From the IMG/VR virus record IMGVR_UViG_3300043411_002463, positions 1-64,000 of that record: 64,000 bases of DNA; one strand, written 5' to 3'. The notes under the pieces were generated by a model, which saw nothing but the letters and a program-made list of their open reading frames with translations, was not told where the DNA came from and searched no databases. Positions 75 to 43,947 of this stretch are shown piece after piece. Position 1 is the first letter of the stretch. Every line of letters starts with the position of its first letter. The translations under genes and the position numbers were made by a program. Source of the stretch: a virus.

Positions 75-1676
75 ATGATGTCTTGTTTTGAAAATTATCC
101 TTACTATATTCCACACACTGAAGTTGGTTTAATAGCAGCTGACTCTCAAAATGATGGATATTCTATTGCTTTGGTTTGGAATAAGGCTTACCAAGCTCCT
201 AATACCTACACTTTAGGTTACAATATTTATTATTCAACAAATAAAGAAGATTTATTTAGTGAGGGACCAAAATATTTACACCTTAATGGTACAGCCGTAA
301 TTTTATTAGATTTCGTACCTGGTGATAGTTATTATTTTGCAGTTAGAGCAACACAATTTTCTTCTAGTTGGATAAATCCAAGTCTTTTACCAGATTCTGG
401 TGACTCTAAAACTTATCCAGAATCAGGATTATCTCAAGATATTGGTACAAACGATGCATCAATATTTTTAACAGATATTAATGAATTTCCTAATTATGGA
501 GTCGTTAAAATTGGTGGAGAATTAATAAAATATAATAATAAAGATTTGTTAACAAGTTCTTTAACTGGATTAACTAGAGGTTTTCTAAGCACTACACCAA
601 GAATTCATACAATTGATGGTTATGATGGATACGATAACTTAGACCCATTTGTTAAATTTTTCAAAGGTTTAGAGGAAAAAAACCAAAAAATAATGTTTGA
701 AACAAATAGTTTCACTTATCCTAATTATGCTTATACAGAAGCTGATGGTTACAAATATGTTGATAAAGATATTTTAAATACAAATTTAACAGCCTCAGAT
801 TCACAATTGGTAAATTCTCCATCTTTTGATTTTATTGGTTGGAGAAGAATTAATCCATCTGATTTATTATCTGGAAAATGTGTCCCATCATATTTTGGAG
901 GAGTTCATTATTGTGCAGATGGCTATGATGGTGTTGGTCGTAGACTTAAGGGAATGTCGGTTAATGATGAATCCTTTAGACGAGAAGAGTTACTACTTGA
1001 ACAAACTGGCAAGCCCGCTGTATTATTAAAGTACAATTACACTGGAGTGCGTTGCTCTTGTTTCAAGTCTCCAAATGAGTATGCGGTCGATCGTTGTCCA
1101 AAATGCTATGGTACAGGTTTTGTGGTTGGCTATCAACAATTCTTTAACTCAAGAAGATCTGATGGTAGGATCTTGGTAAGATTTGATGCTACTGAAGAAG
1201 ACTTGCCAGTACAAGAAGCTGGTATTGAAAATACTTTAAGTCCAAATGCTTGGACCCTATCTTATCCAGCAGTTAAAGATAGGGATATAATAATTTTTTA
1301 TGATTCATATAATACTTCTCAAGAAGATTCTAGATTTGAGGTATTAAATGTTACAAGAAATTTGTTATTATTTGGGGTTCAAGGCGCTCAAAAGATGAGA
1401 TTACAACGTATTCGCAAAACTGATGTGGCTTATAAGATCCCGGTTTTTGCGGATTCTTCAACCATGCCTTCAACATTAACCTCCAGTATTAGTTCAAGTC
1501 CAGGTATTTTACCACATACACATGCTATTCAGATTAGTGAAAATATTTTGAGTATAGGTCAAATAAATCAATTATCTGGAATGGGCGGAGTGAATAATCA
1601 ACAACAGCATAACCATCCAATAATTAATGGCGTTGTGCAACCTGTACTTGGACATACACACACAATAATATTATGA
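75..1676 (+). CDS. Multi-domain virion neck/head-completion-like protein (FN3 + fibre-type module + Zn-finger neck domain + His-rich C-terminus)
   Basis: N-terminal FN3-like pattern (LVWN..GYNIYYS..YYFAVRA). FPNYGVVKIGGELIKY..LTGLTRG resembles a common phage fibre module. RCSC..CPKCYGTG is the Cys cluster seen in myovirus head-completion proteins. C-terminal HTH/HNH/HTH triplets. Lies upstream of the tail genes. Confidence 0.55.
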   Translation: MMSCFENYPYYIPHTEVGLIAADSQNDGYSIALVWNKAYQAPNTYTLGYNIYYSTNKEDLFSEGPKYLHLNGTAVILLDFVPGDSYYFAVRATQFSSSWINPSLLPDSGDSKTYPESGLSQDIGTNDASIFLTDINEFPNYGVVKIGGELIKYNNKDLLTSSLTGLTRGFLSTTPRIHTIDGYDGYDNLDPFVKFFKGLEEKNQKIMFETNSFTYPNYAYTEADGYKYVDKDILNTNLTASDSQLVNSPSFDFIGWRRINPSDLLSGKCVPSYFGGVHYCADGYDGVGRRLKGMSVNDESFRREELLLEQTGKPAVLLKYNYTGVRCSCFKSPNEYAVDRCPKCYGTGFVVGYQQFFNSRRSDGRILVRFDATEEDLPVQEAGIENTLSPNAWTLSYPAVKDRDIIIFYDSYNTSQEDSRFEVLNVTRNLLLFGVQGAQKMRLQRIRKTDVAYKIPVFADSSTMPSTLTSSISSSPGILPHTHAIQISENILSIGQINQLSGMGGVNNQQQHNHPIINGVVQPVLGHTHTIIL

Positions 1677-41010: not shown

Positions 41011-43947
41011 ATGACTATAAGACCAGACGTTTCTTTGATTAAAAATAATTTTCGAGACTCTTTGCAAATCTCTCAAACTGAATTGCAAGTAGAGCAAGAT
41101 TACTATGATGGAAAAATCAAATCAGTAATTGATAATCATATAGGCTCTGGTGTATTATTAGAATCTCTTACAGATAATATAATTTTTAACTCAGATGAAT
41201 TAACAGAAGTTCAAACTGGTTATATTTCTTCTAATACCTTCGACGGACGTGGTATTAGCCCACTAGTCCAACCCACAGATGTTAATTTAGGAAATCAACT
41301 TGAAATAACATTGTCTGAGTCAAGTGCTGTTGGTAGACATAGTGTAAAAATTTCAATTGTTGGTCTTGATTTTAATGGAGAATTAATTCAAGAAAAGTTT
41401 TATTTTTATACTAATGAAACTCAAGTAACTTCAAAACATTTTGCTAAAGTTTTATCTCTATTTTTTAATGATTTCAAAGGAAATGATAATTGTTCTAGAA
41501 ATTTGGGCGGAACTATAGTTATTAAAGAATCTAAATCTTTCCAAATATCTAGAGACCCAATTATGATAGCTCAAGATGTTGAGCCGGATTTTTTTTGGCG
41601 CGATTTTAAGAAATATACTATATCTTTAACTTTGGAACAAGTTATTCAAGAAGGCATTGGTTCTGAATATTCAGTTGATGGTTTGAATATCAATACTACT
41701 GGTATTAGCAATCAAGAACTTTTAGCTAATGATGTATCTTCTCAAATTGGTGAGAAATTTTATGCAAATACAGATAATATTCAAAAAATAACTATGTTAT
41801 TGTCTGTATCATCAGATGATAGTGCTGCAGAAGCAAACAAATATGATTGGTCAGGAGATCTTGTAATTTCAGTATATAAATTACAAACCAGTGTACTGTG
41901 TGATGCTGATATTATTCCAGATTTAGCAATTGATTTTGATCCAAATCCAGTTTCATTAGCACAAGTTTCTTTTAATCAAGCATCACTTAAAGAAAATGGT
42001 TATGTTTTAACAGATGTATTGCAACCAGTTGATTTTGTATTCAGTGATAGTAAAATTGGTAAGGCTAGTGGAGTTGAGGTAGGAAAATATTATGCCGTTT
42101 CTATTCAAAGAAATGGCTCTGCTGCTACTGGAAATATTTACATAGGAACTGGCAATAACAATTCAGTTTATAATAGATTAACTGTATTTTCTGGAACAGA
42201 ATGGGTTGATGTCGAAGATTCTTCTATTTGGTATCAAGTTTGGACTGATGCAATTAAAATAACTTCCGGAAAAGGTTATGATTCTGGTACAGGAATTCAA
42301 ATTGATAAAACAAAACAAATAGTTGATAGTTCATCAGCTAGCATTGCAATTGTTGATAATGAAGAAAAAAATTATTCATTCAGTGATACTGGTTTTAACA
42401 CTGTTAATATTGCATTAGTTCAAGCCGTATTAGAATTAACATCTGAAGAACAAGATCAATTAACTGGAAATTATGTTGAATCAAAAAATAAATATAATCC
42501 AGCATTAAGTTTAATTTCTCAATCAGAATTAACAACATTACAAACAACAAGCAATCCATTTATAGTTGGTTGTGTAAAAGATGTTAATCCAAAATTAAAT
42601 TCAACCTTAGAAAAAACTTATTCAATTCCAGGATTGGCACGGGGAGATAATTTTTGTATATTAAATCCAGATGCTGATCTAATCTCTTTAAATTTAGTAG
42701 GAAGTGTATTAACTCCAAACAAAGATACTAACTTTAAATACAAAATTGTCAAAGCTACATATTGTACAGATGGTTATGGTGATGTTAATGGCGATGGCGA
42801 AATTGATGATCTGGACATTACATTAGCAACATCATTAATAGGAGAAAGTTTATATTTTTCAAGTACAGTTAATAAAATTAATGATGGTACTATTGATGTT
42901 TTACAATTATTAAGAGCTGACGTTGATAATGATGGTTATGTAACTTCAAATGATGTTGATGCAATTACAAGCTATGTAAACAAGTTAGTTAATTCATTTA
43001 CAGCGGGTACTTCATTCTCTCATATGTGTTTAGAAGTACAGCCATTAACTGGTAGATTTGATGGCTATTATGATTGTACAGATGGATATGTTAGATTAGA
43101 TGGCTATGGACAAGTGGGTTCTATTTCGACTGGAGAATTATCAACCGAAGAAATTTTGTATCAAGGAAGTAATGTCGTTCCTATTTTACAACTAGACTCA
43201 ACTTTAACAGTGGTTCCATTTGTTTCAAAAACATTTCAAATAACGCCAAAACCATATTGGCAGCCTTGGCAATTGCTATTGTCTAGCTCTGCTCGATATG
43301 TACAAGCTAGTTTTACCTATGCAGATTCTCTTACTGAACGTTCTTGTAGCACAACAGCAGCCTCATTATGTTCTGCTCAATTTACCGATGTACCAACTGT
43401 AGAACCTGGTAGAAATGATACTTTAATTCCAGGCAATATCATTATTGATAAAGGTGCTCTATTAAATCTTGATGGAACTTTATATAAACAAGATTTAGAG
43501 ATTAAGACAATTGAGTTGCGTTTACCAATCACAGAATTATCAGAATCTAAAATAAACATTTTTGAGAAGTTATTGGTTGATAAGGGTGACGGCAAAACGT
43601 TTGCTGAGTATCCTGCTGCTAAATACTATGATTGTTCAACTGTTCAACCAGAAGATTTGGCGCTAAATAAAGTGAAATTTGAAGTTGCTATTCAATCCAT
43701 TTATAAAGTTGTTGATGGCTATGATTCAAGTTACGAATATGTCGTAATTAATAATCCAAACATTGGTGTAAAGATGGATAATTCTACTGGAATTTTAACA
43801 CTAAATGTTTCCGATGTTGACTTGGACAATATTAAAGAAACTTTAATTACAAAAATTTCAGTTAATATTTATTTAAAGAAAGCTGGATTTAACAACACAC
43901 ATCTTATAATTCCGCCTGAATCTATAGCTGGATTAATTTCTAGCTGA
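41011..43947 (+). CDS. Virion structural protein with dockerin-like Ca-binding duplicate
   Basis: N-terminal NF.DSLQIS..ELQVEQ.Y attachment-like motif. GDVNGDGEIDDLD and ADVDNDGYVTSND form a dockerin-type repeat pair. Confidence 0.6.
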   Translation: MTIRPDVSLIKNNFRDSLQISQTELQVEQDYYDGKIKSVIDNHIGSGVLLESLTDNIIFNSDELTEVQTGYISSNTFDGRGISPLVQPTDVNLGNQLEITLSESSAVGRHSVKISIVGLDFNGELIQEKFYFYTNETQVTSKHFAKVLSLFFNDFKGNDNCSRNLGGTIVIKESKSFQISRDPIMIAQDVEPDFFWRDFKKYTISLTLEQVIQEGIGSEYSVDGLNINTTGISNQELLANDVSSQIGEKFYANTDNIQKITMLLSVSSDDSAAEANKYDWSGDLVISVYKLQTSVLCDADIIPDLAIDFDPNPVSLAQVSFNQASLKENGYVLTDVLQPVDFVFSDSKIGKASGVEVGKYYAVSIQRNGSAATGNIYIGTGNNNSVYNRLTVFSGTEWVDVEDSSIWYQVWTDAIKITSGKGYDSGTGIQIDKTKQIVDSSSASIAIVDNEEKNYSFSDTGFNTVNIALVQAVLELTSEEQDQLTGNYVESKNKYNPALSLISQSELTTLQTTSNPFIVGCVKDVNPKLNSTLEKTYSIPGLARGDNFCILNPDADLISLNLVGSVLTPNKDTNFKYKIVKATYCTDGYGDVNGDGEIDDLDITLATSLIGESLYFSSTVNKINDGTIDVLQLLRADVDNDGYVTSNDVDAITSYVNKLVNSFTAGTSFSHMCLEVQPLTGRFDGYYDCTDGYVRLDGYGQVGSISTGELSTEEILYQGSNVVPILQLDSTLTVVPFVSKTFQITPKPYWQPWQLLLSSSARYVQASFTYADSLTERSCSTTAASLCSAQFTDVPTVEPGRNDTLIPGNIIIDKGALLNLDGTLYKQDLEIKTIELRLPITELSESKINIFEKLLVDKGDGKTFAEYPAAKYYDCSTVQPEDLALNKVKFEVAIQSIYKVVDGYDSSYEYVVINNPNIGVKMDNSTGILTLNVSDVDLDNIKETLITKISVNIYLKKAGFNNTHLIIPPESIAGLISS

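Follow-up and report, generated by a model that had tools for sequence, protein, structure and literature searches.

A recurrent Asp-Gly-Tyr tripeptide on outward-facing virion proteins of a megaphage clade, possibly an acceptor site for phage-encoded glycosylation

Why should a single tripeptide, Asp-Gly-Tyr (DGY), recur across the neck and tail proteins of a phage and be absent from the other genes of the same contig? The question is raised by a stretch of viral DNA 64,000 nucleotides long, positions 1 to 64,000 of IMG/VR record IMGVR_UViG_3300043411_002463 (the window), in which the 44-kb block from 75 to 43947 forms a virion (neck and tail) module of 19 open reading frames (ORFs) and 14,285 aa. 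The translations of these 19 ORFs hold 25 DGY, spread over 8 proteins, against 2.5 expected from each protein's own composition (Poisson probability 6e-17). The excess is confirmed as real and far beyond chance, and DGY, as a short linear motif, is under selection on those parts of the virion that probably face outward, namely the neck accessory region, the sheath insertion, the fibres and the outer baseplate. Something probably reads it. Our preferred reading, to which we give a probability of roughly 40%, is that DGY is the acceptor site of a phage-encoded, cytoplasmic protein glycosylation system that attaches glycans O-linked to Tyr.

The motif was counted in the translations of the 41 main ORFs that make up the window's long plus-strand gene array. 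The features of the module are given below with the residues and nucleotide positions of their DGY; the names terminator, spike, wedge, tape measure and hub are labels from an earlier note on this DNA, and proteins are cited hereafter by their first nucleotide.

75 to 1676, + strand: predicted neck stopper-type protein, 533 aa; 5 DGY, residues 27, 181, 184, 224 and 282 (nucleotides 153, 615, 624, 744 and 918); AlphaFold2 (AF2) model and fold matches
1673 to 2626, + strand: protein kinase-like gene, 317 aa; Pkinase match, 5.7e-08; no DGY; overlaps the end of the neck gene
2918 to 6373, + strand: fibre-like protein, 1151 aa; 2 DGY, residues 80 and 199 (nucleotides 3155 and 3512); no PHROG or Pfam match
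6848 to 11965, + strand: fibre-like protein, 1705 aa; 5 DGY, residues 272, 606, 807, 1207 and 1523 (nucleotides 7661, 8663, 9266, 10466 and 11414)
11969 to 12760, + strand: protein upstream of the sheath gene ("terminator" in the earlier note), 263 aa; 1 DGY, residue 122 (nucleotide 12332)
12845 to 15274, + strand: tail sheath, 809 aa; 2 DGY, residues 182 and 199 (nucleotides 13388 and 13439); PHROG tail sheath match
15315 to 24817, + strand: DGY-free block of tube-like 15315, 16019, tape-measure-like 17079, 19124 and hub-like 19961 (1618 aa)
24814 to 26799, + strand: virion protein, 661 aa; 1 DGY, residue 430 (nucleotide 26101)
26814 to 34393, + strand: DGY-free block of 26814, 28918 and the baseplate core, gp25-like 30656 and gp6-like 31163
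34395 to 41006, + strand: baseplate or wedge-periphery protein, 2203 aa; 3 DGY, residues 1179, 1183 and 1189 (nucleotides 37929, 37941 and 37959)
41011 to 43947, + strand: last structural protein, 978 aa; 6 DGY, residues 587, 641, 684, 691, 697 and 902 (nucleotides 42769, 42931, 43060, 43081, 43099 and 43714)

Most structural proteins besides the sheath, the neck protein, 30656 and 31163 have no family match in PHROG or Pfam. The last two match PHROG baseplate protein and baseplate wedge entries (gp25-like and gp6-like families), and the tube-like protein 15315 has a weak PHROG virion-protein match.

The earlier note had arrived at 25 DGY in 8 virion proteins by hand, and our recount agrees with it exactly, protein by protein; its estimate that about 30% of some 80 DG dipeptides in the module continue with Tyr becomes 29% of 85. 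It had also proposed a comparison with shuffled controls, which the enrichment survives: 5000 shuffles of whole proteins gave a mean of 2.5 DGY (standard deviation 1.6) and never more than 10, and 3000 shuffles inside 30-aa blocks averaged 2.8 and peaked at 9. No other tripeptide in the module is as enriched as DGY; DGT comes next (16 against 4.6 expected). When the DGY copies are set aside, DG falls from 85 to 60 and GY from 68 to 43, and the tripeptide thus accounts for the excess of both dipeptides.

The motif is absent from the rest of the contig. None of the 22 ORFs at 43962 to 63855 contains it, as the earlier note had stated, and the same holds for all 47 ORFs outside the virion block on the whole 86,750-base contig (13,134 aa; 1.5 expected), including the 22.7 kb past the window. 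Within the module, the proteins that had been listed as free of DGY (tube, tape measure, hub, baseplate J, 26814 and 28918) are indeed without it in the window. The DGY-free virion proteins (5,982 aa) hold 16 DG, none with Tyr next, an outcome with a probability of 0.0007 at the carriers' rate of 0.36. Across four genomes, 15315, 17079, 19124, 19961, 28918 and 31163 have no DGY at all (16019 and 30656 lay outside that check); orthologues of 26814 have one DGY in each of two relatives, G001 and G003.

That the signal lies in the protein, as the earlier note had argued from the varied codons, follows from its reading frame. The DNA pattern GAYGGNTAY has 25 matches on the plus strand, each of them in frame 0 of an ORF, and a single match on the minus strand, which rules out a DNA-level motif; the codons are mixed (GAT 24 and GAC 1; GGT 13, GGA 8 and GGC 4; TAT 23 and TAC 2). 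An artefact of composition or codon usage is ruled out by the global and local shuffles and by relatives at 28-48% GC. A common domain at the sites is likewise ruled out: when the 83-aa windows surrounding the 25 sites were compared all against all by BLAST, no pair fell below E 0.002 in a 2-kb database, and the alignments were mostly anchored on DGY itself, in keeping with the description of the carriers as otherwise unrelated.

The excess extends to relatives, at roughly 8- to 10-fold in those tested. Around homologues of the neck gene, 14 loci hold 11-16 DGY where about 1 is expected per 20 kb, and a distant control (L015) holds 1 where 1.0 is expected; one of the two scan patterns contained DGY 282, and that site was therefore pre-selected in L005 to L014. 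The patterns of a sheath-centred scan were free of DGY and gave 71 loci. Over 69 of these, 420 DGY stand against 51.4 expected, and DGY is the top tripeptide in five of five subclades (40 against 5.7, 137 against 16, 47 against 5.1, 73 against 10.2 and 24 against 2.0), although counts over the sheath loci, the subclades and the four tail modules discussed below pool related sequences and are not independent events; we therefore rely on the per-genome figure of 25 against 2.5. Loci poor in DGY are distant partial matches (L015, L115 and L116) or short loci, some consisting mainly of DGY-free genes, for instance those of tube, tape measure and hub.

A 301-kb relative, G003, repeats the partition on a larger scale, with 35 DGY in the tail module (4.1 expected), 16 in a second block (2.2 expected) and 6 in the remainder of the sequence (about 7.2 expected). 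The second block lies on the opposite strand and encodes a PHROG virion structural protein together with collagen-like tail fibres. Control structural modules from Tunturi_5 (3 against 1.9), Arash (1 against 1.8) and T4 (9 against 2.6) reach 0.6- to 3.5-fold, as compared with 8- to 28-fold here. Among the T4 carriers are UvsW as well as SegD and SegE, which have a DGY-x-GSG stretch in common. In addition, one subclade (L087, L088, L091, L093, L094, L097 and L114) has DAY raised to 19 against 4.2 beside DGY at 47 against 5.1, and is the subclade with the most divergent copy (30-32% identity) of the GT4 glycosyltransferase described below; DGH is raised in three other subclades. These enrichments, in pooled related loci, may represent a relaxed or shifted motif.

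How does the motif evolve? The orthologues of G001, G003 and G004 share 47% residue identity overall. In comparisons with them, 47 of 67 DGY remain intact, whereas all tripeptides together are intact in 14%, other DGx in 24% and other xGY in 15%. Fourteen four-way orthologue sets contain 47 DGY sites, of which 21 occur in one genome, 5 in two, 13 in three and 8 in four. The 21 single-genome sites compare with about 9.6 occurrences expected in all; sites of DGT, DGS, DGF and NGY are nearly all confined to a single genome, in numbers near the composition expectation. Judged from these alignments, DGY behaves as a selected unit that is kept, gained at new positions and arrayed in loops of 2-7 copies.

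Both its outer residues are specific. In the four tail modules, DGY reaches 102 against 9.6 expected, and neither NGY (9 against 11.6) nor DGF (19 against 11.9) shows a comparable enrichment; the remaining variants are EGY (3 against 6.7), DGW (2 against 1.7), DGV (19 against 16.6), DGI (21 against 20.1), DGT (40 against 18) and DGS (33 against 24). The flanks have no consensus in these modules beyond a hydrophobic tendency at -1 and the clustering of DGY with itself. A generic Asp-Gly beta-hairpin was rejected as the source of the signal, since Asn and Asp, or aromatic and beta-branched residues, are not interchangeable (NGY, DGF, DGV and DGI all fall far short of the enrichment of DGY). A special turn at DGY would be compatible, as the modelled sites do sit in turns.

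Where the sites lie within folded proteins can be seen best in the neck and sheath models. The neck protein combines an N-terminal fn3 domain and an inserted beta domain with a four-Cys cluster and C-terminal HxH repeats. Its AF2 model (mean predicted local distance difference test score, pLDDT, 88.6) has a stopper/neck fold over residues 284-488 and fn3 over 6-213. The stopper fold matches 8q01_S (Z 10.8, 149 residues aligned, root-mean-square deviation, rmsd, 9.1), 9l0e_A (Z 10.2, 120 aligned, rmsd 3.9) and 8hdr_A (Z 9.5, 109 aligned, rmsd 3.0), on residues 284-458, and Foldseek gives probability 1.00 for 8qkh, 8q01 and 8qgr. On the strength of this model, the protein is a neck stopper-type protein. 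All five DGY are predicted to lie N-terminal to the stopper core: one in fn3, two at the end of the inserted domain, one just past the fn3-aligned range, and the fifth in a conserved loop of low confidence (267-292).

Homologues of the neck protein number 652 at E <= 0.001, and the family figures here and below refer to the best 120 of them. The five sites, in order, are kept in 95, 113, 81, 117 and 110 of the 120, the mean top-residue frequency of the family being 0.63, and the set holds 575 DGY against 20.5 expected. Where Tyr is lost, Phe is seldom the replacement. As a separate observation, the Cys cluster (C327, C329, C341 and C344) and the HxH pairs (H481/H483, H512/H514 and H527/H529) are invariant in 115 sequences and resemble metal sites known from phage fibres; the tripeptide HTH is enriched in the tail modules (6 against 0.4).

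Protein 12845 is certainly a contractile-tail sheath. Residues 634-804 match the PHROG tail sheath family, and its AF2 model (pLDDT 84.6) aligns with the sheath of phage 812 (8q1i_I; Z 33.3, rmsd 2.5, 320 residues) and with that of pyocin R2 (3j9q_A; Z 29.5). Only 314-330 of its 809 residues align to such small sheaths, and both DGY, in ordered loops beside strands, belong to the beta-rich part that those lack. Extra sheath domains of this sort face outward in other sheaths. The earlier placement of DGY in exposed loops finds support at the level of domains, with the motif in accessory or inserted parts outside the conserved cores of both models. Sheath ORFs of relatives were chosen by short conserved peptides and length (52 found, 47 distinct; in alignment A5, 2 of 45 chosen ORFs, L112 and L113, were dropped for positions off the sheath match). 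Of the 47 distinct sheaths, 30 have three DGY and 5 have none; three of those five were identified (L088, L093 and L097), and their loci are still enriched in DGY.

The other carriers combine fixed and shifting sites. Site 199 of 2918 is kept in the G003 orthologue, and DGY 430 of 24814 in three of three orthologues. In the 263-aa protein, DGYGN is invariant both in alignment A3 and in three of three orthologues. The three orthologues of 6848 have 4, 4 and 7 DGY; sites 272 and 807 are present in all of them and site 1523 in none. In 34395, a tandem loop bounded by conserved flanks has 2 DGY units in G001, 3 in the window, 4 in G004 and 7 in G003. Protein 41011, whose gene adjoins the glycosyltransferase island, has the highest DGY density among the larger module proteins after the neck protein, and its orthologues carry 5, 8 and 5. 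It also contains a Dockerin_1 match (type I calcium-binding repeat; residues 589-657, 9.9e-08). The EF-hand/dockerin loop (DxDxDG, acidic at position 12) was considered as a general explanation and rejected, for it fits 1 of the 25 sites, residue 641 of 41011; the other 24 have no EF-hand pattern and no upstream Asp or Asn consensus.

What, then, might read the motif? A 16-kb sugar island begins 14 nt past the last structural gene.

43962 to 45047, + strand: GT4-family glycosyltransferase, the first gene past the virion module; weak Pfam GT1/GT4 matches
45038 to 60527, + strand: the remaining glycan island, with glycosyltransferases, sugar-pathway genes and unknowns

Besides the GT4, the island encodes three GT2 enzymes, a CgeB-like glycosyltransferase, a 701-aa GT-B-like protein, a PglD-like acetyltransferase, a DegT aminotransferase, Gmd, a second dehydratase/epimerase and proteins of unknown function. 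Its 19 ORFs have no hydrophobic segment of 19 residues, save one borderline case, and hence no membrane protein; the product is therefore presumably made on a cytoplasmic acceptor. All 10 related records, among them the four rated 96-100% complete, contain a GT4 homologue, which in nine of the ten lies within 1.3 kb of the 41011 homologue (6.4 kb in G007). Its followers vary, with the 701-aa protein in 6 of 10 records, the CgeB-like enzyme in 4 of 10 and GT2 genes after GT4 in 5 of 5. Such a pattern, in which the first enzyme is conserved and the later ones vary, would be expected of a fixed protein linkage carrying a diversifying glycan.

Two side results concern individual enzymes. The GT4 has two very weak sequence matches in the PDB, one of them the chlorovirus glycosyltransferase B736L (3oy2, E 0.017), which is a lead only. 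The 701-aa protein has no Pfam, NCBIfam or PDB sequence match; for this sequence the Atlas suggests a GT4-like protein (score 0.88), again as a lead only. DNA is a less likely target of the island, as the pathways that commonly lead to glycosylatable bases are not shared across the clade: the ThyA family was found in one of the four complete genomes, and Tet_JBP in none of the four, by a search that was positive nowhere and shows little. Among other possible activities, Sulfotransfer_3 (0 of 4 complete genomes; control positive in 2 of 14) and tyrosinase (0 of 4; no control positive) are weak negatives.

We infer that DGY carries an attachment in the first place, that Tyr accepts it and that the GT4 acts as initiating enzyme. 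We postulate that the GT4 would add the first sugar to the Tyr hydroxyl, recognising the Asp carboxylate and the turn that Gly enables, and that the variable GT2 and other glycosyltransferases would extend the glycan with sugars from the island's own pathway (Gmd, DegT aminotransferase and PglD-like acetyltransferase). The outcome would be a glycan coat over the tail exterior. We put forward more tentatively the fuller picture, in which DGY would be a clade-wide code on all outward tail, neck and fibre proteins, read by a soluble GT4 that starts a Tyr-linked glycan and diversified by lineage-specific glycosyltransferases.

A role for phage glycosyltransferases in decorating virions would not be without parallel. 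Virion glycosylation of mycobacteriophages by phage-encoded glycosyltransferases was reportedly described by Freeman et al. in 2023. In a related account, these enzymes probably modify structural proteins of the phage itself in the cytoplasm, which would give the particle a glycan coat, with glycans at the C-termini of capsid and tail-tube subunits (PMC12619734). As in that system, the glycosyltransferase genes here adjoin structural genes, and they keep this synteny in relatives. Unlike there, the candidate sites are internal DGY in at least 8 outer tail proteins, the candidate acceptor is Tyr, and the tube acceptor has no counterpart, the tube-like protein having no DGY in four genomes.

Giant viruses offer a second comparison, with atypical sequons in chlorovirus Vp54 (NTXT, NIPG) and N-acetyl-viosamine in Mimivirus fibrils (PMC9614988). 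There, as here (Gmd, DegT, PglD-like), a virus-encoded sugar-nucleotide pathway is combined with soluble glycosyltransferases, and here no lipid-carrier machinery is present; the candidate sequon here, like theirs, departs from the cellular one, and a 4-amino-4,6-dideoxyhexose pathway has its likely counterpart in the DegT, acetyltransferase and dehydratase genes. Those viruses are eukaryotic, however, and their glycans are Asn-linked on capsids or are fibril polysaccharides, whereas here a Tyr-containing tripeptide would be modified on the tail proteins of a tailed phage.

Cellular systems show that three residues can suffice as a sequon, as in N-X-S/T and in the D-(S/T)-(A/I/L/V/M/T) motif of general O-glycosylation in Bacteroidota. 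Like the latter, DGY would pack a code into three residues, beginning with an acidic one and offering a hydroxyl as acceptor, and would be spread over many unrelated proteins. Unlike both, which are extracytoplasmic and use lipid-linked glycans, the island here has no membrane component, and Tyr stands at position 3. Adhesins are glycosylated in the cytoplasm, by GtfA/GtfB (GT4) on serine-rich repeat proteins, by HMW1C on HMW1 and by Aah/TibC on autotransporters. These systems resemble the one postulated here in having soluble glycosyltransferases, GT4 among them, that modify a surface protein at many sites before export or assembly; they differ in that the acceptors are Ser or Asn, and that they are non-viral and have no DGY. 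Tyr-linked glycans do exist in bacteria: in S-layers, Glc- or Gal-to-Tyr linkages are made cosecretionally by a membrane O-oligosaccharyltransferase at few sites (PMC2943079). The available part of that account gives no sequon, and the membrane-bound enzyme and the small number of sites set the S-layer system apart.

Several points weigh against glycosylation at DGY. Covalent modification is itself something that we infer. All ten related records have both island and motif, with no motif-free or glycosyltransferase-free member, so that co-occurrence cannot discriminate. A full-text literature search found no description of the motif among the matches listed, judged by title or abstract, nor a DGY-type Tyr glycosylation site. 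Many neck sites are positionally fixed (110-117 of 120 homologues at 45-61% identity), a behaviour closer to that of residues with a structural or functional role than to that of a typical sequon, and Tyr, when lost there, gives way to Val, Ile, Thr, Gln or Ser. The modelled sites are well-ordered turns beside strands (pLDDT about 86-97), often with a hydrophobic residue at -1, and thus fit an Asp-Gly beta-turn. Finally, the T4 structural region (L047, 75-125 kb) has its milder excess, with 3 of 9 sites in non-virion proteins, and so part of the DGY signal may reflect a general hairpin preference.

Perhaps, then, DGY needs no reader and is an intrinsic structural or chemical element, an Asp-Gly turn in which the Tyr hydroxyl and the Asp carboxylate would form a stabilising clasp, an ion site or a subunit contact, ancestral to the clade and reused in new loops as a good folder in exposed beta-rich decorations. 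We regard this as possible, though doubtful. It would suit the invariant positions in the neck protein, the sheath and the 263-aa protein, the ordered turns with their hydrophobic neighbour, the mild enrichment of DGT (40 against 18), the 3.5-fold excess in T4, which has no such system, the single textbook EF-hand/dockerin loop and the presence of metal-type HxH motifs in the same proteins. Asn-Gly is usually a better turn former than Asp-Gly, and yet NGY is unenriched (9 against 11.6); nor do Phe and Trp substitute for Tyr. Moreover, where 2-7 DGY units follow one another in a single loop they cannot all form hairpins, single-genome DGY sites run at about twice the composition expectation while those of DGT, DGS, DGF and NGY are at expectation, beta-rich inner proteins have none, and the control structural modules stay at 0.6- to 3.5-fold rather than 8- to 28-fold.

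Or, DGY might serve unmodified as a docking or ligand motif, whose partner would be a decoration or cement protein or a glycan of the host or environment. Its restriction to outer virion proteins would fit such a role, as would the loop arrays, whose copies would increase avidity; an Asp with an aromatic residue is, moreover, typical of sugar-binding sites. This alternative is nevertheless unlikely. Three residues across many unrelated structural contexts would serve a folded partner poorly as an epitope, host binding would be odd at the conserved sites of the neck and of the sheath-adjacent 263-aa protein, and no candidate partner was identified.

The earlier note had also named the kinase at 1673-2626 as a candidate reader, and Tyr phosphorylation could be suspected from the position of this gene, inside the virion block and overlapping the end of the neck gene, and from its Pkinase match. 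The genomic evidence makes it very improbable. No kinase homologue was found in five of five relatives, nor by tblastn in G001, G003 and G004; the four genomes rated 96-100% complete have neither a homologue nor a PF00069 match, in a search whose control was positive in 11 of 14 genomes. All of these kinase-less relatives retain the DGY excess, so that the kinase is ruled out as a clade-wide reader, and the supposition that relatives might keep DGY only together with the kinase did not hold. With no homologue in any tested relative, the gene itself is apparently a recent acquisition. An artefactual origin of the excess, whether from composition, codon usage, a DNA motif or a repeated domain, is virtually out of the question, given shuffles that never pass 10, in-frame DNA matches, an excess that persists at 28-48% GC and unrelated flanks.

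If glycosylation at DGY is the correct explanation, a tailed phage would for the first time be seen to have a virion-wide glycan coat directed by a sequon, and Tyr O-glycosylation would gain its first defined sequon. Reading of DGY by phage enzymes would provide a simple, predictable code for coated phage surfaces and an initial handle on glycosylation directed at tyrosine, and would suggest why the largest phages carry sugar islands beside their tail genes. Even without an enzyme, the retention of one tripeptide at about ten times the chance level by hundreds of metagenomic phages (652 neck homologues at the threshold above, 71 sheath loci) is an unexplained design rule of the virion.

As for the genome in which these genes reside, no close relative was found among cultured phages, and we know of no cultured member of the clade; IMG/VR holds many relatives. 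CheckV rates an 84.6-kb relative as 20% complete and records of 409-459 kb as 96-100% complete, one of the latter having direct terminal repeats. From these ratings, the window represents about one fifth of a megaphage genome of some 410-460 kb. The 22.7 kb beyond it encode ribonucleotide reductase, DNA ligase, an intein-bearing IMPDH/GMP-reductase-like protein and a PhyH dioxygenase. The intein splits the IMPDH/GMP-reductase-like gene at contig bases 82607-84781 (L117:15857-18031), where Intein_splicing, Hom_end_hint and Hint matches sit between the two halves of the IMPDH domain. One further gene of the window, past the island, deserves mention.

60533 to 61819: tubulin/TubZ-like GTPase (Tubulin 7e-16, TubZ-like_C 4e-07)

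It lies directly upstream of a UvsW-like helicase gene and is itself conserved in G001, G003 and G004.

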